Origin: a virus
Virus record (IMG/VR): IMGVR_UViG_3300033146_002242
Span: 54,288 to 118,287 of that record
Length of the DNA: 64,000 nucleotides
Strand: one strand, 5' to 3'
Part shown: positions 593 through 55,127 of the stretch, piece after piece
Position numbering within the stretch: the stretch's first letter is position 1
How the letters are laid out: every line of letters begins with the position of its first letter
The notes under the pieces: model-generated
The model's database searches: none
What the model was told of the DNA's origin: nothing
The model's input: only the letters and a program-made list of their open reading frames with translations
Made by a program: the position numbers and the translations under genes

Positions 593-818
593 ACTCTCAG
601 ATTGCGAAGCCTCAGAGCTCTTAGATGAGCAGCCGGAGGATAGGCTGAGAGTTGGAGTCGTCGATACAGGGAGTCCAGAGAATACTGTCAAGTCTTAAGG
701 CTTCGGTAGCAGTATTTGATGACGGACCCGGTGCAGTGTAGAAGCTAGTCTGGTAACAGAAGGCAAGGCCACCGAAAGGCGCATGGCCCATGCCTCGGAT
801 TTGCTTGCGGGGCTTTTT
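593..818 (+). ncRNA. unclassified structured RNA, copy 1
   Basis: GC-rich non-coding segment with stems ACTCTCAG/CTGAGAGT, GTCGTC/GATGAC, AATACTG/CAGTATT, AAGTC/GGCTT, TCTG-GTAA-CAGA and a terminal T-run; covaries with copy 2. Confidence 0.65.
651..764 (+). repeat. 114-bp exact direct repeat, copy 1 (copy 2 at 1718-1831)
   Basis: base-by-base identity GTTGGAGTCG...AACAGAAGGC. Confidence 0.95.
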
Positions 819-5196: not shown

Positions 5197-5269
5197 GCCG
5201 GGTTAGCTCAATTGGCAGAGCAGTTGATTTGTAATCAACAGGTTGTGGGTTCGATTCCCATGCTCGGCT
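5197..5269 (+). tRNA. tRNA-Thr(UGU)
   Basis: cloverleaf; anticodon arm GTTGA-TT-TGT-AA-TCAAC; T-loop TTCGATT; no encoded CCA. Confidence 0.95.
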
Positions 5270-5292
5270 TTCAATTTAACGAGGAGTTGAAG

Positions 5293-5604
5293 ATGGATGA
5301 AACTTTAAAAAAAATTTATGGTATGATTCCAAGATTGCCACAAAGACAAGATTCATTAGCAGCACAATTTGCTGATTTAAAAATATTTGCAAATTCAATG
5401 GGAATGTATGATGCTGCTGATGCAATATCTCAATGGATTGTTAATATGCCTAAATTAAAATTTGGGTGTTATTGTGATTTGGAAGAAGGGCATAAACCTG
5501 ATGAATGTGTGATTAATTTGGGTAAAAAATCCAATTGTATATATGCAAAAAATATTGAACGCCCCGAACAATGTGAGTATTGGAGACCTATATCTAATGA
5601 GTAA
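5293..5604 (+). CDS. Cys-rich hypothetical protein
   Basis: ATG 5293 after GAGGAG (the track start at 5212 lies inside the tRNA). Confidence 0.65.
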   Translation: MDETLKKIYGMIPRLPQRQDSLAAQFADLKIFANSMGMYDAADAISQWIVNMPKLKFGCYCDLEEGHKPDECVINLGKKSNCIYAKNIERPEQCEYWRPISNE

Positions 5605-5905
5605 TTGGGTATTTATAATTAAAGTTTGTATTTTATGTCAATTAGTAGTATTTTTTATATGTATGCAAATAAGTAAATATGAGGGGTATCCACCATCAGT
5701 TTGGAATGTTGCGGAATTAAAAACTAATATTATTATCTCAATTATTTTTCCAATTGGGATAGTATTTATTATATATTGGTCTTTAAATATAATTGGTGAT
5801 ATTGTTTCAGACAAAATAGAATACATAAAATCTAAATTGCGAATACATAGCAAATGGCAATATATAATTGATAATATATGGCCAAAGTTAACAAAAAAAT
5901 TATAG
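5597..5905 (+). CDS. small membrane protein (paralogue of 7205-7423)
   Basis: two hydrophobic segments; QL..F.I...I....GYP...W...E....I....IFPIG. Confidence 0.65.
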   Translation: MSNWVFIIKVCILCQLVVFFICMQISKYEGYPPSVWNVAELKTNIIISIIFPIGIVFIIYWSLNIIGDIVSDKIEYIKSKLRIHSKWQYIIDNIWPKLTKKL

Positions 5906-5914
5906 GAGTGATTA

Positions 5915-6238
5915 GTGGCAGATGAAATTTTGGATAATGATTATATATTAGAATTGAAATTATTATCTAGAGTGAGAAAGCGGTGTTTTTTAGATCCAGG
6001 GTTTCTCACGAAAGTAATTCAAGCGGGAGTAGCTGGTATCCAAGAATATGCGGATACACAATCTCGCCGGGCTGCTGACATGGAAACATTCGCGTCAGCT
6101 ATGGCCTTTCTTCAAAAACAAGAAAGATTATCACCAAAATTAAAAAAACAAATGAATGATTTAGCTTTAGCTAAACTAGAAAAATGGATGGGCAAAACAT
6201 CTCTTAGATGGGATGATGATATAATAAAAAAGGAGTGA
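5915..6238 (+). CDS. hypothetical protein
   Basis: GTG start after AGGAG. Confidence 0.6.
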   Translation: MADEILDNDYILELKLLSRVRKRCFLDPGFLTKVIQAGVAGIQEYADTQSRRAADMETFASAMAFLQKQERLSPKLKKQMNDLALAKLEKWMGKTSLRWDDDIIKKE

Positions 6239-6426
6239 TATTATGGATAAATCCCTTAAAAATAAAAATGCTTGGGGTAAATTTTTTGAGCAAATGAAAA
6301 AAGAAGAAAATATAGAAATAACTGTTGATTCTAAAAAACATATGCGGCATATTGAAAAATCATATGAAAAAACTAATCAAGCATATTTACACGCTAGACA
6401 TATGGTGGTTAAATAAAGGATGTAAA

Positions 6427-6690
6427 ATGGAATGGATTGATGTAAAATCAAAATTGCCTATGGAAGAATTAAAAGGTCAAAAAGTTATTGATCGTTATAT
6501 GGTTACTGTTTATCCAAAAGATATGGATCCTGTTGAAGGTCCAAGAGTATTGATTTTATGGTTTTCAGCAGAAAATATGGAATTTTCAACTGAACCTGGT
6601 GGGTTTAAATATGAAAAAATGCACGATCATTTTGTATCACATTGGGCAGAATTACCGTGTCCAGCTAAATTAAATAATGAAAAAAATTAG
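6427..6690 (+). CDS. DUF551-like small phage protein
   Basis: MEWIDVKSKLP start and VSHWAELP end pattern. Confidence 0.5.
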   Translation: MEWIDVKSKLPMEELKGQKVIDRYMVTVYPKDMDPVEGPRVLILWFSAENMEFSTEPGGFKYEKMHDHFVSHWAELPCPAKLNNEKN

Positions 6691-7087
6691 AAGAAAAATT
6701 AAAAGATTAGATTTAGAAAATTGGCAAAAAATGGTATGTGAAATAAATGATAATGATTATGTAGGAATGAAAGAAATAACACCTATAATAAATAAAAATG
6801 GATGTTATTTAGAGGAAAATAAGTGTTGGTTTGAATATAGTGGCAGAGCATTTACATATAACAAGGAGGATTTTTTATACACATTGAAAATTCTATCGAT
6901 GCCAAATTTTAGTGAATTACAAAAAAAATCATTAGAAGATTTTATAAAATATAATAAAAAAATTGCAAGTAAACATCAAAAAGAAATGTTATATATGATG
7001 AAACAAGAGGAAGATTTGAAAAAAGCTATTAGAGATATAAAAAAAATAAAATTCAAAATAAAAAAGATAAAAAAGATGAAAAAATAA
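6677..7087 (+). CDS. hypothetical basic protein
   Basis: ORF track. Confidence 0.55.
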   Translation: MKKIRRKIKRLDLENWQKMVCEINDNDYVGMKEITPIINKNGCYLEENKCWFEYSGRAFTYNKEDFLYTLKILSMPNFSELQKKSLEDFIKYNKKIASKHQKEMLYMMKQEEDLKKAIRDIKKIKFKIKKIKKMKK

Positions 7088-7102
7088 ATTAAATTGTAAT
7101 AT

Positions 7103-7175
7103 GGGTCATTAGCTCAGTTGGTAGAGCAACTGACTTTTAATCAGTAGGTCCGGAGTTCGATTCTCCGATGACCCA
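7103..7175 (+). tRNA. tRNA-Lys(UUU)
   Basis: cloverleaf; ACTGA-CT-TTT-AA-TCAGT; followed by TCA. Confidence 0.95.
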
Positions 7176-7204
7176 TCATTTATTTATAAAAAGAGAGGTG
7201 TTTT

Positions 7205-7423
7205 ATGAAAATACAAATTTGGCAGATATATTTACTGGTAGTATGCATTCAATTATTAACTTTTTTAATAATAAGTCATATAGCTCGAAAATATGGTTAT
7301 CCTATAAAGACGTGGACACTGAGAGAATGGTCATTCGCTATTTTAATGACTTTTATATTTCCCATAGGGTGGTTAGAAATATTCAGAGCTTCTATATGGC
7401 CATTTCTTATTAAAGAAAGATAA
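7205..7423 (+). CDS. small membrane protein (paralogue of 5597-5905)
   Basis: GAGGTG RBS; two hydrophobic segments; GYP..W..E..IFPIG. Confidence 0.65.
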   Translation: MKIQIWQIYLLVVCIQLLTFLIISHIARKYGYPIKTWTLREWSFAILMTFIFPIGWLEIFRASIWPFLIKER

Positions 7424-7447
7424 ATATTTAAAATATTAATTTAATAA

Positions 7448-7536
7448 GGAGAGGTGGTCGAGTTGGTTTAAGGCACCGGTCTTGAAAACCGGCGAGGGTT
7501 TATAGCCTTCCGTGGGTTCGAATCCCACCCTCTCCG
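7448..7536 (+). tRNA. tRNA-Ser(UGA)
   Basis: cloverleaf with long variable arm; CCGGT-CT-TGA-AA-ACCGG; G73; followed by TCA. Confidence 0.95.
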
Positions 7537-7807
7537 TCAAAATATTAATATTATTTAAAAAGGATTAATATGATAAATACAATTTTATTAGTAATATCTA
7601 TAATTGGGTTATTGGTATTAATAGTGTTGGGTATTTTATTTATAATCGAGATAAATAAAATATTTAATCGAGGTATATCAAATGAAACAATCGAAAAAAT
7701 ATTAGATAGAAAACCAATTTTTTGGATACCTCCATTTAATTAAAAAATTTACATTTGCATATTAAGTAAATATGACGATTTATACTTTTTATTTATAAAT
7801 TTAATGT

Positions 7808-7881
7808 GTGGGTGTGGCCTAGTCTGGTAAGGCACCTGATTTGGGATCAGGAAATCGGAGGTTCAAATCCTCTCACCCGCA
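7808..7881 (+). tRNA. tRNA-Pro(UGG)
   Basis: cloverleaf; CCTGA-TT-TGG-GA-TCAGG; followed by TCA. Confidence 0.93.
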
Positions 7882-8046
7882 TCAATTTTGTAATTTTTAA
7901 ATTTGCACTATGAACAATAGTGACAAATAGCAGAGGATTGTAAATGAGGAGATACAGATTGATATATATTATCATTAGTATATATTCCATAATAATTTAT
8001 AAATATTACACATTATACTAATGTGGCGGCTGGCGTTGGATTTAAT

Positions 8047-8283
8047 ATGATTATATATCGATGTGATAGATGTAATAAAAAAATGGATGAAGATGAGAAT
8101 CGTAGAATTGAAGGATTTAATAAATTTTCATCTAATGATATTATGCATTTTACAATTTCAATAAAGCCAGATAATAAACATTTTTGTCATGATTGTATCA
8201 GGCTTATGGTAATCAATGCATTAGAAGATCCCAACAATAATATATTATATGGGTGTAATACAAAATATATTAGTAATAAATAA
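8047..8283 (+). CDS. small zinc-finger-like protein
   Basis: CDRC ... CHDC. Confidence 0.55.
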   Translation: MIIYRCDRCNKKMDEDENRRIEGFNKFSSNDIMHFTISIKPDNKHFCHDCIRLMVINALEDPNNNILYGCNTKYISNK

Positions 8284-8362
8284 ATTTATTTATGCATTAC
8301 ACATTTTAAATGTGACAATATAATATTGTATTATTTTTTAAAAAAAGTGAAAGGAGCTTTGT

Positions 8363-10117
8363 ATGAAGAAAGTTGTTGTGAGAAAATATAGATGTTGGGA
8401 GCCTTTGAATATGGGGCAGGATGTAATTACCCAGTTGTGGTTGCAAAATCAAATGTGGAATAAATTAGTAGAGATGGAACAAAATTTATATAAGAAGTAT
8501 AGAGAAGTTATGTCTACTGATACAGCAGTAGCTGAAATTGAAGAAAAATTAACTCAAAATGATACTGCTATTAAAGCATATATGGAAGAAAGAAATGAAA
8601 TAAGGAAAAAACTTAAAAAGAAGAAATGTGCTGAAACAGCATATTTTGATGAACAAATTAAAGAATTATCAGCAGAATCAAAAGAGCTTCGTAAGATAGC
8701 TCGGGAAAAAAGAAAAGAAGCAAAAGAAAAAGTTAAACCTTTACTTGATGAAATCAATCAAGAAAGAAAGGAAAGAAGAAAAAAAATATATCAAAATTCG
8801 GGGTTGTTTTGGGGTAATTATAACAGAGTCATGGCATCATTTGATATCGCTGTATCAAAATCGATGAAAACTGGCAGCACTTTACGTTTTCATCGATTTG
8901 ATGGAACTGGAATTTTTAAAAATTTCTTGTCCCCCGGCCGAACAAATGATGACATGTTAAATGGAAAGTTAAGTTACTTACATTTACAGGACATTCCTGC
9001 TGAGTCATTTAATGATTATATCGGTAGAAATAATCCATGTAAAATGGTTCTCGGTAGTCGTAGAGAAAGATCACGAAAATATGGGCTTCTCAAATTCACG
9101 ATTTATCGAGGAAAAGATGAAGAAGGAAATAGAATAAATAGAATGTTAGAAATGCCAGTGCTGCTTCACCGTCCATTGCCAGATGATGAAGATTTATTAA
9201 TTAAAGAAGCCGTTGTACGGCGGGAGTGTGTATCACCCGGTGAATATAGATGGTTTTTTATATTAACATATGTTGGTGGTGAATTTCAGCCAGTTCAACA
9301 TGTTAATACTGGTAGTGTTGCTGGTATTAACATGGGTTGGAAAACTGTCAATAATAATACATTGCGAATTGCTACTTTGGTGTCGGATAAAGAAACAGTA
9401 CATTTCATTCTACCAGAAAAAATTATGAAAACATATGATTATTTAAATCAATTAAAATCGGAAGTCGATAGCATGATTAACCATGCTATTGCTAGAATAA
9501 AAGAGATTATGAAAGATGATGATGAACTTCCTGAATCAATGGGAGTTTATTTAACCAGAATAACAAAGGCCAAACGGCCGCGATATGATTTATTAGAGAA
9601 AATGATGTGGGTATGGGATAAAGAATTGTCATATAAACCAGAAGAATTTTCTGAGGCAAAGGCTCATTTTGATTATCTTAATCGTGTTTTATCTGAGATG
9701 AATAATTTGAGAGATAAAGTCCGTGGACACCGGTTAGATTTATATCGGTGTTGGACAAAAATGATTACTCAAAAATATGAAACAATTATTGTTGATAAAT
9801 TAAATTTGGCGCAACTAAGTAAATTGGAGGCCGATGATGGCACTCCCACCAATAACTTACCAGAAGCAGCTCGTAAAAATCGAGTCATTGCATCGGTAGG
9901 TATTTTTAAAGAATGGCTTGATAAACAGGCTTTGAAAGTGGGGTCTGTAATTATTAAGAAATCAATTAAATCATCCACAATCTGCTCAGATTGTGGCGGT
10001 AAATTGATTAGAAAAGACAGTATCATATGGGCGTGCGAAAATTGTGGTAGCGTGTTTGACCAAGATGTTAACGCGGCTACTAACTTGATACGGTCGTATC
10101 AAGAAGAAGCAGCGTGA
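8363..10117 (+). CDS. Cas12m-like (type V-U1/V-M) RNA-guided DNA-binding protein with predicted inactive RuvC
   Basis: Motifs collinear with Cas12m as I recall it: QLWLQN..WNKLVE, K/R-rich helical insertion, LFWGNYN, LRFHRFDGTG, PVLLHRPLP, GINMGW (RuvC-I D>N323), RGHRLDLYR, IIVD (RuvC-II E>D478), CSDC/CENC Zn finger, DQDVNAATNL (RuvC-III D568). Confidence 0.8.
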   Translation: MKKVVVRKYRCWEPLNMGQDVITQLWLQNQMWNKLVEMEQNLYKKYREVMSTDTAVAEIEEKLTQNDTAIKAYMEERNEIRKKLKKKKCAETAYFDEQIKELSAESKELRKIAREKRKEAKEKVKPLLDEINQERKERRKKIYQNSGLFWGNYNRVMASFDIAVSKSMKTGSTLRFHRFDGTGIFKNFLSPGRTNDDMLNGKLSYLHLQDIPAESFNDYIGRNNPCKMVLGSRRERSRKYGLLKFTIYRGKDEEGNRINRMLEMPVLLHRPLPDDEDLLIKEAVVRRECVSPGEYRWFFILTYVGGEFQPVQHVNTGSVAGINMGWKTVNNNTLRIATLVSDKETVHFILPEKIMKTYDYLNQLKSEVDSMINHAIARIKEIMKDDDELPESMGVYLTRITKAKRPRYDLLEKMMWVWDKELSYKPEEFSEAKAHFDYLNRVLSEMNNLRDKVRGHRLDLYRCWTKMITQKYETIIVDKLNLAQLSKLEADDGTPTNNLPEAARKNRVIASVGIFKEWLDKQALKVGSVIIKKSIKSSTICSDCGGKLIRKDSIIWACENCGSVFDQDVNAATNLIRSYQEEAA

Positions 10118-10121
10118 ATAT

Positions 10122-10166
10122 ATTCCCTGACATGAGAATATTTCAAAAATTCTCATGTCAGGGAAT
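10122..10166 (+). repeat. 18-bp perfect inverted repeat right after the cas12m-like stop (terminator or guide-RNA scaffold stem)
   Basis: ATTCCCTGACATGAGAAT / ATTCTCATGTCAGGGAAT, 9-nt loop. Confidence 0.85.
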
Positions 10167-10288
10167 CATTTTTACACGGTAAATACATACAAATCGTGGC
10201 AACTTATCAGGTCAAATATTATTATAATATTTGAATTTTTGAATTTACACATTTAATTAAATGTGATATGTCCTGGGAAGTCAATTAT

Positions 10289-10603
10289 ATGGAAACTTGT
10301 AATAAAGAATGTGATTTATACCCCATGACAATGGGGTGCATAGATTGTAAACATTATGATAATGATTTAGCTGCAAAAAATACTATTCAAAAATTTATAG
10401 ATTCATATAAAGGTGAAATAAATGGTATTCATATGATTATTGCAGCATGTGATTATATGGAATGGAGTTTAGCAATCCCAAAAGAAGAACATATAAATGA
10501 AAATGATAATATAAAAGGTTTGATTATTGGAGAAGAAAATTACGTATCATCTATTTTAGATAAAATAGATGGTGTTAAATTTAACCCAACAAATAAAAAT
10601 TAA
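10289..10603 (+). CDS. hypothetical protein with N-terminal Cys cluster
   Basis: CNKEC...CIDC. Confidence 0.55.
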   Translation: METCNKECDLYPMTMGCIDCKHYDNDLAAKNTIQKFIDSYKGEINGIHMIIAACDYMEWSLAIPKEEHINENDNIKGLIIGEENYVSSILDKIDGVKFNPTNKN

Positions 10604-10883
10604 ATCTAAAAAATCCTATATCAGAAAAAACATTTTTAATAGGTAAAATATGTGGAATTAAAAAACCTGTTATAACAGGTGAATCATTTATTTTAATGAT
10701 TGAACATAAATCACATAAATCAGTTGTGTGGAATATTCCAGCAACTGATGTTGAATTAATATAATTATTGTCCAATATAAAATTGGGACCATACATACAG
10801 CAGCTATTATAACAATATAATCATTTTATTATAAATTATCCAATATTATAATTGGGTCAACGATACAAATAACATTTATTAAA

Positions 10884-10957
10884 TGGGGTGTCGTTCAATG
10901 GTAGGACAACAGCCTTTGGAGCTGTTTATTGGGGTTCGAATCCCTACACCCCAGCCA
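10884..10957 (+). tRNA. tRNA-Gln(UUG)
   Basis: U1-A72; ACAGC-CT-TTG-GA-GCTGT; encoded CCA. Confidence 0.95.
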
Positions 10958-11100
10958 TTTGATATTTACTCTATATAATATATAATAATGGGAAATTAAT
11001 ATTTAAAATATTGATTAAATAATGGAATTTACCAATTAAATTGTTTTAATAACAATTACTTTTTATATATATTGATAAATAAATAGGGTAATTTGTTTAA

Positions 11101-11176
11101 TCCTCGGTAGTTCAGTTGGCAGAACAAGTGGCTGTTAACCACTATGTCGCAGGTTCGAGTCCTGCCCGGGGAGCCA
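11101..11176 (+). tRNA. tRNA-Asn(GUU)
   Basis: AGTGG-CT-GTT-AA-CCACT; encoded CCA. Confidence 0.95.
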
Positions 11177-11684
11177 TTTTTTAGATGAAAGGAATATATG
11201 GATTTTATAACTTGGTGGTTTAATCATCATTATGTAGTATCTACTTTATTAACACCTTTTATGACACTAGCTTGGGTATTTTATAAAGGGCTAGTAATAA
11301 GAGGTATATTTACAGTTATTTGGATTATAATTGAGCTTATTATTATGACAGTCGGATCGTCATAGGCGAATCACATCCGGTATTGGGGTAATTTCAAAAT
11401 TAAGAAACTCTCTGATATACGATGGAAAAAGAAACGGTGTAATTCCGTACCCGACTTTTAAAATCTCATCAACGGACACATCATTAGTATTTTCAGAATA
11501 ACAAATATTGATAAAAATTCGAAAACCCCGATATATGTAGAAGAATTTGAGTTTAGCAGGGATGAATGGAATAGTGAACCACCAGAATGCTTACAAAAAG
11601 CTATAGTTGCATGTAAAAGTAAAACACAGTGTTATCATTGCAGAACTGTGTATTATGCAGCTGAAAAAAAGGAGGATTGTGTTA

Positions 11685-11945
11685 ATGCATGATTCACATG
11701 AGATTTATGAATTTATATATAATGGATTTTGTGTTGAGCGATTGAATAAAAATAAAACAGTATATACAGCTAAATTTAAAAAATGGACCCGTGATCCGGG
11801 TATTGGAATTTTTGAATGTTCTGATGGAAAAAATCGGTATATTCCAACCTGTGCAATAAAAGATTTTGATACACTACATATACATCCTAAACAAGATGTA
11901 AACGTAAAAGAAAAACTTTTGATGTGCAACTCTGCTACATCATAA
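11685..11945 (+). CDS. conserved hypothetical phage protein
   Basis: AGGAGG RBS; WTRDPG...CSDG...IP motif. Confidence 0.6.
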   Translation: MHDSHEIYEFIYNGFCVERLNKNKTVYTAKFKKWTRDPGIGIFECSDGKNRYIPTCAIKDFDTLHIHPKQDVNVKEKLLMCNSATS

Positions 11946-11954
11946 GTGAAATTA

Positions 11955-12031
11955 GGGCCCTTAGCTCAGTTGGTTAGAGCTCCCGGCTCATAACCGGGCG
12001 GTCCGGGGTTCGAATCCCTGAGGGCCCACCA
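11955..12031 (+). tRNA. tRNA with CAU anticodon, most like tRNA-Ile2
   Basis: CCCGG-CT-CAT-AA-CCGGG; acceptor and D-arm resemble bacterial Ile2 rather than fMet; encoded CCA. Confidence 0.85.
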
Positions 12032-12157
12032 TGTAAAAAATTAGTTAAATTTACGCAATACAATGTTGCGGCATTTTATTATTGTTTTTAAATTAAAAAT
12101 AAATATGGTATTTTCAGTATGGTTTTTTATGTAACTTAAATAAAAAAGGAGATCTAT

Positions 12158-28950: not shown

Positions 28951-31900
28951 ATGAATATTAAGAAATCTCAAGGTAATTGTACTGAATGTGTGTTAACTAA
29001 ATACGAATCTTTATTTCCAAATACAAATTCTAAAAAGAATATTACAAAAGTTGATATTTTATTTGTAATAGATTCGTTTTCAAAAAAAGATTTAAAAAAT
29101 AATAAAATTTTATCAGAACAAGATAATAAAGAATTTTATGAAATTTTTGAAAAATATGGATTGAAGAAATTAAAATATATGATAACTTCATTATCATATT
29201 GTGATTGTAATCATATTGAAGATGAAGAACAATTGGATAAAGTATTTGAATGTTGTAAAGAAAATTTATATCACATGATTGATATTGTCAAACCTAAATT
29301 AATTGTTGCAATGGGTTATAATGTTTGTAAATATTTAAAAATAACAAAACCATCTTTAAATAATATTAATTTATTAAGAGGTAAATTTTTTGAATATAAT
29401 AAATCTAATGTTTTAGCTACAATATCTCATAAAAGTTTGAAAGAAAATAAAAACTATGTTAAATTATTAGATAATGATTTTTATAAAATTGCTGAATATT
29501 TTAATTTAACAAATAATATTCATAAGAAAAATAATACTGGTGCTGATATTAAATTTGTAGGAAAAGGTTTACAGTTTTATAATATTCCTGAAAAATATTA
29601 TACTGAACAATATAGATTAGTTGATATTCAATTTTTATATAAAACATCTGAGGTATTATATATTTTTAGAGATAAAAATAATAATAAAGAATACTATAAA
29701 CATAATGATGATTACTATTTTTATAAATCTTCTAATTCAATTGATAAAAAGATAATCGAACAAGATAACGCTTCTGCTTTTATTACTTCTTGGAAGAATA
29801 GATATGATATTGAACCAGACACAACATATGAAGCTGATGTTCGATTACCTATCAAACACGCGATTGATTATGGTATTAAAAATAAAGAAGATTGTTTTGT
29901 TGATTATTTAAATAATTGGTTTTTTGATATTGAATTAGATATGAAAAATACAGAAGCTTTTCCTTCTATTGAGGATGCTAAATTTCCAATCAATATGATT
30001 TCAGTATCTTTTAATGGAAATAATATTATTTACATATTAGATAATAAAACCAAGCCAATAGAAAAAGATGATAAAAATTATGAATATAAAATTTTTGATA
30101 AAGAAATTCCCTTATTAAAAGAATTTATTAATGACTTCAAAAATGCAGATCCTGATACAATTTCAGGTTGGAATACAAATACATTTGACTTACCATATTT
30201 GTATTTTAGATTAAAAAGATTAAATATTGAACCAAGTACATTATCAAAATTTGGTGTATTTGATGTGGATATGCAATGGGGGAGGGTGACTATTGCAGGG
30301 GTAGCTTGTGTTGACCAATTAGAAATTTATAAATTATTTGAATTTGGTAAAAAACCAAGTTATAAATTAGATAGTATTGCGAATTATGAATTGGGAGTTA
30401 AAAAAATTGAATTAGGAGAATCTATTAGTACAATCTATAATACAGATATTAATAAACTTATTCGATACAATATTCGTGATACAGATTTATTGGTTCAATT
30501 AGAAGATAAAATTGGACAAATTAATTTAGTTCACGAAATTAGAAAAGTTTGTTCATCAACAATTTCTGCTATCATGTCAACTTTTGGGCAAGTTGATCCT
30601 TTGATGATTTCTTTTATGAAGAAAAAAGGTTTTGTTGTTAAAAATGCAATTAGAACTGGAAAAGAAAAATTAGTAGGTGCGTTTGTCAAGGAACCAAATC
30701 CGGGTATATATAAATGGTTTGTTGATTTTGATTTCACTTCACTTTATCCAAGTATAATTCGGACATATAATATTGGGGTTAATACATTTGTTTTTAGATT
30801 TATAGATCCACATTTAGGATATGATATAACTTATAATCCAGATAATTTACCAGATGAAATTCCTATTATTTTTGATCCTAACTATAAAGCAAAAGAAACA
30901 ATTGTAAAGAAAGAAAAATTATTAGAACGCATTAAAGAAATGAATTTGGTGTGGACAATTAATGGTTGTTTTTATTTAAATCACAAAGATGAGATATCTG
31001 AACTAAGTGAAATTTTGGATTATTTAATGTCATCAAGAAAAGTATATAAAGATAAGAAATTTGAGGCAAAGGTAAATAAAGATGATTTAATGACTCGTGT
31101 ATATGATACACGGCAATTAGTATATAAAGTTTTAGCTAATAGTTTTTATGGTGTTATTGCAAATGAAAATTTTAGATTTTTTAATATTCATTCTGCTGGC
31201 GCTATTACTGCATCTGGTCAAGAAGCGATTAAAACTTGTGTTATAAATGCACATAATAAAATAGAATCAATGTATGAAGAATCTGATTTTATTCAACCGA
31301 ATATTTTATCTAAAAAAGAAATGTATAGTGATACTTTAGATAAATCAAGAAATACTGATAATGTTATTACAAGTGACACAGATTCTATTTTTTGTTGTTT
31401 TGAAAAATTTGAAAAAACTTCAATGGAAGATATTAGAAAATATTGTGATGAAATACAAACTTTTTTAAATACAGAAGTGATTATAGAATTGTTAAAAAAA
31501 CATAATCATTTTAATAATGAATTCAATTTTCTTAATATGAAAAATGAATTGATTTGTAAAAAAGGTTTATTTGTTTCAAAGAAACATTATGTTATTCATG
31601 TTATTGAACAAGAAGGTAAAAAAGTTGATGATATTGTACATGTGGGAATTGACACCAAACGGTCTGATATTTCTGAAAAAACAAAAGAATTTTTAAATGA
31701 GTTGATTAATATTATTTTTGATGATGATAATATCACAATTAAAAAATTAGTTAATCATATTAAAATGAAAGAAATCGAATTTATTGAATTGTTGAAAAAA
31801 GGTGATAAAACATTAGCTAAGTCAGTTTCATTTACTAAAGATATATCTAAATATAAACGTACAATTCCACAACATATAAATGCTATGTTAAATTGGAATA

Positions 31901-32196
31901 CCCTTGTTTATGAATCTTTTCAAGTTGGTGATAGGGGCAATTTATTTAATATTACGGGTATTGATGAAACAATTGCACCACCAGAAATTGTTCAAAAATA
32001 TCATACACATTTTTTGAAAAAAGGTAGAAAATTAGAAGTAATTGCTGTACCTGAAACAGAACCGTGTTTACCAAAATATTTTATAGTAAATATTAAAGAA
32101 ATGATGCGGGTTGGATTTCATGATAGATATGATATTTTATTAAAACCGATTTTAAAAGTTCAACAACAAACTAAAAATAAAGTTTTAACATTTTAA
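28951..32196 (+). CDS. polB: family B DNA polymerase with N-terminal uracil-DNA-glycosylase-like (family 4 fold) domain
   Basis: Exo FDIELD, GWNTNTFDLPYL, YNIRDT; Pol DFDFTSLYPSII, KVLANSFYG, SDTDS; N-terminal CxxC..ILFV..C..KPKLIVAMG..RG..TISH. Confidence 0.92.
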   Translation: MNIKKSQGNCTECVLTKYESLFPNTNSKKNITKVDILFVIDSFSKKDLKNNKILSEQDNKEFYEIFEKYGLKKLKYMITSLSYCDCNHIEDEEQLDKVFECCKENLYHMIDIVKPKLIVAMGYNVCKYLKITKPSLNNINLLRGKFFEYNKSNVLATISHKSLKENKNYVKLLDNDFYKIAEYFNLTNNIHKKNNTGADIKFVGKGLQFYNIPEKYYTEQYRLVDIQFLYKTSEVLYIFRDKNNNKEYYKHNDDYYFYKSSNSIDKKIIEQDNASAFITSWKNRYDIEPDTTYEADVRLPIKHAIDYGIKNKEDCFVDYLNNWFFDIELDMKNTEAFPSIEDAKFPINMISVSFNGNNIIYILDNKTKPIEKDDKNYEYKIFDKEIPLLKEFINDFKNADPDTISGWNTNTFDLPYLYFRLKRLNIEPSTLSKFGVFDVDMQWGRVTIAGVACVDQLEIYKLFEFGKKPSYKLDSIANYELGVKKIELGESISTIYNTDINKLIRYNIRDTDLLVQLEDKIGQINLVHEIRKVCSSTISAIMSTFGQVDPLMISFMKKKGFVVKNAIRTGKEKLVGAFVKEPNPGIYKWFVDFDFTSLYPSIIRTYNIGVNTFVFRFIDPHLGYDITYNPDNLPDEIPIIFDPNYKAKETIVKKEKLLERIKEMNLVWTINGCFYLNHKDEISELSEILDYLMSSRKVYKDKKFEAKVNKDDLMTRVYDTRQLVYKVLANSFYGVIANENFRFFNIHSAGAITASGQEAIKTCVINAHNKIESMYEESDFIQPNILSKKEMYSDTLDKSRNTDNVITSDTDSIFCCFEKFEKTSMEDIRKYCDEIQTFLNTEVIIELLKKHNHFNNEFNFLNMKNELICKKGLFVSKKHYVIHVIEQEGKKVDDIVHVGIDTKRSDISEKTKEFLNELINIIFDDDNITIKKLVNHIKMKEIEFIELLKKGDKTLAKSVSFTKDISKYKRTIPQHINAMLNWNTLVYESFQVGDRGNLFNITGIDETIAPPEIVQKYHTHFLKKGRKLEVIAVPETEPCLPKYFIVNIKEMMRVGFHDRYDILLKPILKVQQQTKNKVLTF

Positions 32197-52694: not shown

Positions 52695-55127
52695 TTGAAA
52701 TATATTAATTTTGTGTCAGTCAAATTTGAAAATTATTGTAATTATATAGATCCAATGGAATTTCAATTTGAAAATGGTAAAATAACATTGATTACTGGGC
52801 CAAATGGAATTGGTAAATCAACTATATTTGGGGCAATTCCATTTGCTTTATATGGTGTGACCCCAACAGGGCAAAGACCAGATGATGTATTGAATAATAA
52901 AACACAAAAAAATTGTAGAGTTGATTGTTTATTTGAAATAGATAATGACAAATATATGGTTAGTAGAACAGTGAAATATAAAAATGTTGGTTCTACAGCT
53001 TTTGTTTATAAAAAAGGAATTAAAGAACCTCTTGCAAAAGGGTATAGAGAAGTAACTAATTTTATTGAAAATTTATTGATTCCTAAAGATTTATTTCTTA
53101 ATACAGTATTGTTTGGACAAAAAGTAAAAACGTTTTTTACAGATTTACCAGATTCTAAACAAAAAGAAATTTTTAGAAAAATATTACAGCTTGATAATTA
53201 TGTAATGTATCAAAAGAATGTAAATTCTATAATGGATGATTTAAAAATTGAATTAAATGAATTACAACATAACAAAGATATAATTCTTTCTAAAATTGAT
53301 GTTATTAAGATTGATACTATTGATACTATAGAAGGAAAAATCAAACATAAATTAACTGAAATTGAGAATTTGAAATGGAATAACAATTTAATTAAAAAAG
53401 ATTTAGAAGAAGAAAAAGAAAAATTAATAAATTTAAAAGAATCTGAGATAAAACTAGAATTTGATAATTTAACGAATTTAATTAATTCTTGTAATAATCA
53501 ATTAGATAATTTGAATAGTTTATTAGATTCTAAAAAAAATGAACTTGAAAATGAAAAAAAATTAAAAATTTCTGAACACAAAGAAAAGATATTACAGATT
53601 GAGAAAACACAAAATGATTTAAAAAATAATATTATAAAAAAATTATCAAAAGCTGCTGAATCTAAAATTGAAATTAATCAACAAAAATTAGAAGATTTGA
53701 GAGAAAAATATCTTGAAGAAAAAAATATTATTGTTGATAATTATAATGAACAAATAAAAAAAATAAAAGATGAATTTGCACAAAAAATTGAATCTAATAA
53801 TTTTAAAATAAATGATGCCACGAATTTTATTAATGAAATAAATGTAAACCAATCAAAACTATCAACTGTTATTGATTTTGCTTCAACAAAAATAAAAGAA
53901 TATAAAAATGCAATTGATAATAAACAATCTATTTGTCCTACTTGTTTTCAGCAATGGGATGATGTTTCACATATACAAAAATTAATTGATGAACAAAATG
54001 AAATTATAATTGAAAAAACAGCTGAACTGAATAAACTATTAGATGATAAAAAACATTATCAAGAAATCATTAATCAATTAACTTCTGAAAACAATGAATA
54101 TAATAAAAATTTAGATTTGTTGATATCTGAATTAGAAGATAAATTTAATAAAGAAAAAGAAAAATTTGATTTATCTTTTAAAGAAAAGGCTGAATCAATC
54201 AAAATTTTAATTTCAGAAATTAAAGATCAATTAAAACAAGAAATTGAAAATATAGAGAAAGAATTTTCTGGTAAAATGTCTGCATTAAATGAAGATTTAG
54301 TTAGAATTGTTGATGAAATTACAATAGCACATCAAATTAATTTACAAGATGTTTTGGAAAAATTTGGTGAAAAAAGAAATAAAATTTTACTTGATATTAA
54401 AGATTATAAAGAAAAATTAAGTAATTTAAAATTAATATTAAGTCAAATAGAAGCGGTTAAAAATAAAATAACTACCTTTGAAAATGATATAGAAAAAAAT
54501 GAATATAGTATTAATGATATTAAAAAACAAATTGAGGAACATAAACAAGAAATAAATAATTGTGTGGTTAAAATAGAAAGTTTATATAATGAAATAGGGG
54601 AACATATTAATAGAATTGATGCTATTAAAGAAAATATTAAAATATGTAATTTCTGGAAGGTTGGATTTTCTTCATCAGGTATACCTTCTATGTTAATTGA
54701 TGAATCAATTCCTTTTATGAATGAAAGAATAGGAAAATATTTAGAACAGATGTCACATGGTAGATATCATGTGACATTTGATACATTAAAAGAAACAAAG
54801 AAAGGTGAATTTAGGGATAAAATATCAATTCATGTATATGACTCTGTTACTCATTCTAATTCCAGAGTTAATTTTTCTGGTGGTCAAATTAGATTAGTTG
54901 ATATAGCTACTATATTAACTTTATCTGATTTACAAGAAGATATTCACAAATTTAAAATTAATATATCATTATTTGATGAAATTTTCGATGCTCTTGATGA
55001 CCAGAATACTGTAAATGTTTCACATTTACTTAGAAAAGTTTTAATAAAAGACAAAGCTATTTGTTTAATTACGCATCGTTTAATTGACCAAATAGAAGCA
55101 GATAACATTTATGCATTAGAAAGTTAA
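52695..55127 (+). CDS. Rad50/SbcC-like ATPase (T4 gp46-like)
   Basis: GPNGIGKS, coiled coil, CPTC zinc hook, FSGGQ, LFDEIFD. Confidence 0.92.
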   Translation: MKYINFVSVKFENYCNYIDPMEFQFENGKITLITGPNGIGKSTIFGAIPFALYGVTPTGQRPDDVLNNKTQKNCRVDCLFEIDNDKYMVSRTVKYKNVGSTAFVYKKGIKEPLAKGYREVTNFIENLLIPKDLFLNTVLFGQKVKTFFTDLPDSKQKEIFRKILQLDNYVMYQKNVNSIMDDLKIELNELQHNKDIILSKIDVIKIDTIDTIEGKIKHKLTEIENLKWNNNLIKKDLEEEKEKLINLKESEIKLEFDNLTNLINSCNNQLDNLNSLLDSKKNELENEKKLKISEHKEKILQIEKTQNDLKNNIIKKLSKAAESKIEINQQKLEDLREKYLEEKNIIVDNYNEQIKKIKDEFAQKIESNNFKINDATNFINEINVNQSKLSTVIDFASTKIKEYKNAIDNKQSICPTCFQQWDDVSHIQKLIDEQNEIIIEKTAELNKLLDDKKHYQEIINQLTSENNEYNKNLDLLISELEDKFNKEKEKFDLSFKEKAESIKILISEIKDQLKQEIENIEKEFSGKMSALNEDLVRIVDEITIAHQINLQDVLEKFGEKRNKILLDIKDYKEKLSNLKLILSQIEAVKNKITTFENDIEKNEYSINDIKKQIEEHKQEINNCVVKIESLYNEIGEHINRIDAIKENIKICNFWKVGFSSSGIPSMLIDESIPFMNERIGKYLEQMSHGRYHVTFDTLKETKKGEFRDKISIHVYDSVTHSNSRVNFSGGQIRLVDIATILTLSDLQEDIHKFKINISLFDEIFDALDDQNTVNVSHLLRKVLIKDKAICLITHRLIDQIEADNIYALES

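Follow-up and report, generated by a model that had tools for sequence, protein, structure and literature searches.

Type V-M effectors, namely MmCas12m2, GoCas12m, PmCas12m and the N-D-D variants (PMC10442227, PMC11013384, bioRxiv 10.64898/2026.03.26.714355), are the described proteins that the phage effector analysed here most resembles, being alike in size, fold, possession of a REC2 insertion and conservation of residues H269 and R270. In Cas12m2 these two residues read the end of the repeat, whose scaffold has a G.A closing pair, five further residues (Y141, W152, N156, Q195 and Q197) read the PAM, and the guide-target duplex comprises 17 bp (PMC10442227). PmCas12m is known to cut its pre-crRNA at guide nucleotide 17–18 (bioRxiv 10.64898/2026.03.26.714355), and two N-D-D variants among the Cas12m proteins tested do not cleave DNA (PMC11013384). 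The presence of Cas12m on prophages and phages has already been recorded (PMC11656645; bioRxiv 10.64898/2026.09.14.751636), as for MvCas12m of myxophage MV-1, which lacks adaptation genes and for which no spacer targets were found (bioRxiv 10.64898/2026.09.14.751636), and for the protein of Virus Rctr197k (KX853510.1); both of these are D-E-D proteins with an adjacent regular array, unlike the N-D-D locus described below.

Two other sets of elements are relevant to the comparison. TldR proteins (dead TnpB repressors, PMC10705468) are likewise nuclease-dead, RNA-guided, carried on a mobile element and probably repressive; however, they descend straight from TnpB and use a long omega-type RNA, whereas the phage protein has a CRISPR ancestry and the REC2 insertion. 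Also, lone or loose degenerate repeats have been described in phages, as solitary viral repeat units and Racr/Cracr arrays (PMC11656645; bioRxiv 10.1101/2023.03.03.530964; 10.1101/2024.10.29.618823), but these act on host Cas proteins, while here the phage itself encodes the likely partner. A literature search that had most subscription journals outside its scope yielded no publication dealing with a minimal, AT-rich handle of Cas12m or with Cas12m handles placed before phage start codons.

The phage and its Cas12m protein

The 64,000-nt stretch of DNA analysed (hereafter the window) spans positions 54,288 to 118,287 of IMG/VR record IMGVR_UViG_3300033146_002242, a linear virus contig of 118 kb with 26% GC that is about 38% complete. 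Its genes include those of a major head protein, a portal, an RNA polymerase subunit and a DNA polymerase of family B. The best match of the capsid protein is Yersinia phage phiR1-37 (27%), and the phage carrying cas12m would appear to be a phiR1-37-like jumbo phage. The cas12m gene (window positions 8363..10117, + strand) is a real and complete open reading frame of 584 intact codons, and it lies within a cluster of seven tRNA genes extending from 5197 to 12031, both in agreement with the preliminary description of this DNA. That description had also reported the absence of cas1, cas2 and a transposase, and indeed we find no cas1, cas2 or Y1 transposase gene, nor a second TnpB-like gene, across the 118-kb contig; since this corresponds to about 38% of the genome, the absences apply to the contig fragment only. 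The GC content at third codon positions is 0.26 in cas12m, against 0.10–0.13 in most core genes (0.28 in the capsid gene), which fits an acquisition from a higher-GC source. We found no close relative of the phage, so that there is no empty site with which the locus could be compared.

Comparison with known structures establishes the family to which the protein belongs. The best five PDB sequence matches are all Cas12m (top E 3e-49), and the AlphaFold2 model (pLDDT 81) matches Cas12m with TM 0.73–0.74, while TnpB reaches 0.42 and CasPhi lies near 0.3, so that the Cas12m identity proposed earlier is borne out by both the sequence and the fold. Indeed, the succession of WED, REC1, coiled-coil REC2, RuvC and TNB domains is that of Cas12m proteins of the ~600-aa class. 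Alignment to homologs places N323, D478 and D568 at the RuvC-I, RuvC-II and RuvC-III positions and contains the four cysteines of the TNB zinc finger, and the long helical insertion noted from the primary sequence is REC2-like in the predicted model. The resulting N-D-D triad falls within the described Cas12m classes (D-E-D, H-D-D and N-D-D) and is common to the six nearest relatives (45–52% identity) and to 30 of 104 aligned homologs. In a midpoint-rooted FastTree phylogeny of 104 rows, from which proteins shorter than 500 aa and weaker matches were excluded, the phage protein is sister to P0005 within an N-D-D clade with support 1.0, in which two loci (L005 and L006) carry arrays and two others (L001 and L002) end in a repeat. 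This position inside the N-D-D clade indicates that the dead site was inherited and is not a phage invention. The lack of DNA cleavage that had been claimed is supported as a prediction, from the N-D-D triad and from the non-cutting behaviour of N-D-D variants (PMC11013384), and we consider it very probable that the protein is a non-cutting type V-M Cas12m. Because a dead triad and missing cas1 and cas2 genes are ordinary in type V-M, these features alone do not make the locus an undescribed system, as had been suggested.

Other identities were considered and rejected: an IS200/IS605 TnpB, as there is no D-E-D triad, no transposase and a single copy on the contig; a Cas12j (CasPhi), as the protein does not have the fold of a 700–800-aa active nuclease and the TM value is about 0.3; and a TldR-like TnpB, as the tree nests the protein among array-bearing Cas12m.

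A related possibility, in line with the preliminary description, is TldR-like repression in which a single long, structured guide would come from the region downstream of the gene, at 10118-10285. This region does fold strongly (z −7.9), an IS200/605-like four-base end motif is found near 10283, and reversion from an array to a single guide has been described for Cas12f-derived proteins (PMC10691335). However, the longest helix consists of one 18-bp hairpin directly after the stop codon (10122..10166, + strand), where relatives have a long hairpin before the array, the supposed guide would be formed by the beginning of the following open reading frame, and there is no substantial Rfam match, no transposase on the contig and a single copy; the Rfam search yielded tRNAs and one group I intron only, and there is no close phage for comparison. 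Moreover, the protein shares the REC2 insertion of Cas12m and descends, within an array-bearing clade, from crRNA-using ancestors, and probable repeat-derived handles occur on the contig. The downstream guide is thus not supported, and we regard a TldR-like repressor as very unlikely; the 18-bp hairpin is probably a terminator or leader, long hairpins following the gene in relatives as well.

Several further features of the contig were noted. A group I intron (Rfam RF00028, 77 bits) interrupts a tRNA-Leu-like gene missed by ARAGORN (L011:16030-16380, or about 54,030–54,380 of the contig), which overlaps the window start and has an HNH endonuclease gene just upstream. A GC-rich direct repeat of 129 nt (window 636-764 and 1703-1831, 96% identical) is apparently non-coding, has no Rfam match and does not fold unusually, and within the tRNA cluster there is a GC-rich stretch (window 11350-11460) with a 6-bp closing stem, a folding z of only −1.7 and no Rfam match. 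An orphan open reading frame of 310 aa (L011:12266-13198, minus strand) has 45% GC in this 26% GC genome and no homolog among 5.8 billion proteins. Finally, the family B polymerase (window 28951-32196) has an N-terminal uracil-DNA-glycosylase-like domain, which together with a QueC gene (L011:13483-14094) suggests a modified-base genome.

Handle-like hairpins and a remote degenerate array

The preliminary description held that there was no CRISPR array, and this does not stand for the contig. A hairpin motif was first seen three times around cas12m, and a search with its relaxed version then revealed a degenerate array of nine units on the + strand, at contig (C1) positions 52,821–53,393 (L011 14,821–15,393), whose 3′ end is about 895 nt before window position 1 and which is 9.3 kb upstream of cas12m. 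Exact-repeat and tandem-repeat searches either missed this array or saw part of it. In each unit, two T and a purine precede a 6-bp stem, whose loop has about 3–6 nt (mostly 5 in the array), and a purine-led two-base end follows; the units are separated by spacers of 26–62 nt. The first 17 nt of the spacers, a length that agrees with the 17-bp duplex of Cas12m, average 38% GC as compared to 12% beyond, a contrast that is partly trivial, since the AT-rich tail is the 5′ part of the next repeat. A segment of ~75 nt, comprising the end of the upstream primase-polymerase-like gene and repeat 1, recurs within the array, which indicates that the array grew by duplication at least once. The gene in question (L011:14140-14820), LigD-type on a weak Pfam match, directly adjoins the array, and the part of it that is duplicated there is its 3′ end.

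This is not the array of a typical V-M locus. The canonical feature, an adjacent array of near-identical 32–37-nt pseudoknotted repeats, is absent at cas12m, and a search of the contig with the relatives' repeats and a pseudoknot-aware model evidences no canonical GC-rich Cas12m repeat, the best score being 14–16 bits against a median of 32–42 for true repeats. In comparison with type V-M systems, the array is remote and heterogeneous, the repeat seems reduced to a short-loop AT-rich hairpin, and lone units precede gene starts. It had been anticipated that a standard array elsewhere in the genome would reduce the locus to a known phage type V system: an array does exist, but it is strongly non-standard.

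A strict descriptor of the unit, which was framed after the hairpins had been seen and follows the published Cas12m scaffold, yields 13 matches: five array units, six around cas12m on the gene strand and two elsewhere. In 1000 shuffles the cas12m region gives a mean of 0.04 and a maximum of 1 against the six observed, and the genome null is 1.8. The lone units, all on the + strand, are placed as follows. The first (7754..7776) is 30 nt before tRNA-Pro; the second (7902..7924) ends 19 nt before a putative 25-codon micro-ORF with a Shine-Dalgarno-like run (7944..8021, + strand), whose stop codon falls within the third (8005..8027), which in turn ends 19 nt before a 78-aa Cys-rich ORF (8047..8283, + strand), a candidate small phage zinc-finger-like protein (score 0.94, to be taken as a lead only). 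The fourth (8296..8316) belongs to the leader of cas12m, with 46 nt between it and the start codon, and overlaps a sigma70-like consensus that is not enriched over shuffles. Beyond the gene, the fifth (10244..10267) ends 21 nt before a 104-aa orphan ORF (10289..10603, + strand; the public gene call has the same length), and the sixth (12050..12072) follows tRNA-Met, its stem being the repeat stem of relative L001 bar one wobble. Three of the six therefore end 19–21 nt upstream of an ATG with a Shine-Dalgarno-like run, a spacing for which the local intergenic background is 4% (post hoc p of about 0.001). A cut 17–18 nt past the handle, as in PmCas12m, would part the ribosome-binding site from the start codon.

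The structure of the units suggests that they are related to Cas12m repeats. In all 15 the whole 6-bp stem is paired, and positions 2 and 5 each occur with three types of pair; such compensatory changes denote selection on RNA structure; also, the unit stems differ from the repeat stems of the nearest relatives mainly in a compensatory manner. The closing purine pair is G.A in 10 units, as in the Cas12m2 scaffold, A.G in three and A.A in two. The phage units carry TT/AA in register with the pseudoknot CC/GG that L002, L005 and L006 have in their repeats; the A-U pseudoknot of 2–3 bp is weak and cannot be formed in four of the six lone units, and the loops are 2–4 nt shorter than those of any relative (7–9 nt). 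The phage protein retains both H269 and R270, and the terminal base that these residues read is C in eight of the 15 units. In sequence, the unit resembles a minimised Cas12m repeat, and we infer that the hairpins are probably the handles of the phage Cas12m, to which the protein would bind.

The units could instead serve another effector, either a Cas12j (CasPhi)-like nuclease encoded in the unseen part of the genome or a type V protein of the host, for which they would be decoys (Racr) or regulatory guides (Cracr), the proximity of Cas12m reflecting a shared variable region. The repeats of CasPhi terminate in a hairpin with a short loop and with flanks similar to those of the phage units, and the array is 9.3 kb away from cas12m. 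Phage Racr units and multiplexed Cracr arrays have moreover been described (PMC11656645; bioRxiv 10.1101/2024.10.29.618823). We nevertheless consider this quite unlikely, as the contig has no second TnpB-like gene, four units are directly upstream of cas12m, one of them in its leader as in relatives, and the differences from the relatives' stems are mainly compensatory.

PAM-reading residues, targets and proposed action

On the PDB sequence alignment, and as counted by hand, two of the five PAM-reading residues of Cas12m2 are retained (W150 and N154), while Y141, Q195 and Q197 are replaced by R139, F188 and S190. Most of the nearest relatives retain the equivalents of these three residues, which P0005 has lost too. 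The replacement of three residues out of five points to a changed PAM, which on this sequence comparison is likely. It would also fit an anti-CRISPR, a dead protein which sequesters the type V crRNAs of the host or whose binding is confined to RNA and involves no targeting of DNA, as has been proposed for a dead phage Cas9 (PMC11656645); yet the K/R-rich REC helices and W150/N154 are retained and the spacer composition fits guides, which makes such a role highly improbable. An RNA-guided binding role of the phage Cas12m is, by analogy with its family, the likely one.

Searches for spacer targets gave none above shuffles within the contig and none in phage and plasmid collections. Among 401 genomes, which represent the phylum around a Geobacteraceae relative, the best match is that of spacer 1 to an unannotated ORF at 21 of 22 nt; position 2 is mismatched and the PAM side is rich in purines. 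This match was rejected, since we estimate that chance would give about 0.1 matches of this quality.

The observations can be combined in a mechanism which draws on the computed sequence, fold, phylogeny and motif statistics, and which takes the lack of cleavage, the 17-nt guide and self-processing from knowledge of the family. A phiR1-37-like jumbo phage would have gained Cas12m horizontally, the protein binding DNA without cutting it, and in a 26% GC genome the crRNA repeat would have drifted to a minimal AT-rich handle, in which two T and a purine precede a 6-bp stem with a 3–7-nt loop and a purine-pyrimidine end follows. From the remote nine-unit array Cas12m would generate crRNAs whose guides are about 17 nt long, and the complex would block transcription or replication of DNA of the host or of rival elements, probably under an altered PAM, the array growing by duplication and mutation and not through Cas1-Cas2. 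The lone handles would be remnants of flanking arrays, maybe kept as cis-sites, where binding or cutting by Cas12m 17–18 nt past the handle may cover or remove the ribosome-binding site of the next gene. Taken as a whole, from a V-M Cas12m with a drifted handle to guides from the remote array and remnant lone handles, we judge this explanation to have an even chance of being correct, and the same balance applies to the array still yielding working guides. Regulation of phage messenger RNAs by the lone units, including those of the small genes and of cas12m, is a tentative proposal that we hold to be somewhat unlikely. A full two-level regulator with a new minimal handle almost devoid of a pseudoknot, in which a Cas1-independent array growing by duplication provides short guides that silence host DNA under a changed PAM, and lone handles control phage messages including that of cas12m through binding or removal of ribosome-binding sites, is a speculative possibility and rather improbable.

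Should the link between protein and hairpins hold, a CRISPR effector would be applying pre-crRNA processing to phage messenger RNA, a guide array would be maintained without Cas1-Cas2 and overlooked by standard array finders, and other 'orphan' Cas12 genes could have hidden guides; should it fail, the locus adds another example of Cas12m carried by a phage. With the link in place, a handle as short as about 23 nt, together with the altered PAM residues, would also be of interest for Cas12m as a compact binding platform.

Loci of Cas12m relatives

We have analysed 55 loci of relatives with enough flanking sequence using a repeat model that misses some divergent arrays, and observed arrays in 20, a single repeat in 17 and none detected in the remaining 18. 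A repeat is located 27–88 nt before the cas12m start in L005, L006, L098, L116, L117, L128 and L175. Among viral records, two lone repeats whose stems are compensated occur in G405, which lacks an array, and a second array of G406 is remote from cas12m, at a distance of 17 kb; in contrast, Virus Rctr197k has a Cas12m and no lone repeat copies within 15 kb. The lone-repeat pattern thus recurs but is not universal. We found no second phage with the minimal handle.

These loci bear on another scenario, in which the phage Cas12m is ordinary or orphaned: either the 62% of the genome beyond the contig would contain a canonical array or the guides would have been lost, and the hairpins would be relics or unrelated signals by which transcripts of the tRNA region are processed or terminated. 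In line with this, the contig is 38% complete, a remote array exists in G406, no repeat is detected by the model, with the limit stated above, in 18 of the 55 loci, and the unit at 12050 also scores as a terminator. The phage protein furthermore departs at 19 positions that are invariant among the six nearest relatives, but departures are as numerous in P0005 (23) and P0007 (25), its reading frame is intact and its RNA-binding residues are retained. The compensatory stem changes imply selection on RNA structure, and outside the array the units cluster at cas12m and nowhere else. The ordinary or orphaned case is for us unlikely, and we favour a Cas12m that uses the drifted handle.

Some observations on the relatives merit a record of their own. 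The 17 single-repeat loci (among L092-L190) each hold one repeat and one spacer, and six of them are in the sister clade of the phage protein. Two single-repeat D-E-D loci from different samples (L099:6502-6566 and L176:6780-6844) share a 14-nt spacer core, as if it were a conserved regulatory guide, and L109, L122, L141 and L183 have the first 11 spacer nucleotides in common. In the upstream array of a near relative (L006:84-235) a spacer is duplicated with an added 19-nt prefix, which again points to array growth by duplication. Near a Cas12m provirus (L275:4390-7930, record G408), dispersed imperfect palindromes occur 4–6 times, a few hundred nucleotides apart, and resemble cassette boundary sites. 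In Virus Rctr197k, a second protein, transposase-like and of 467 aa (L280:7939-9834), has its own, different array of four repeats, 5.5 kb from the Cas12m locus.
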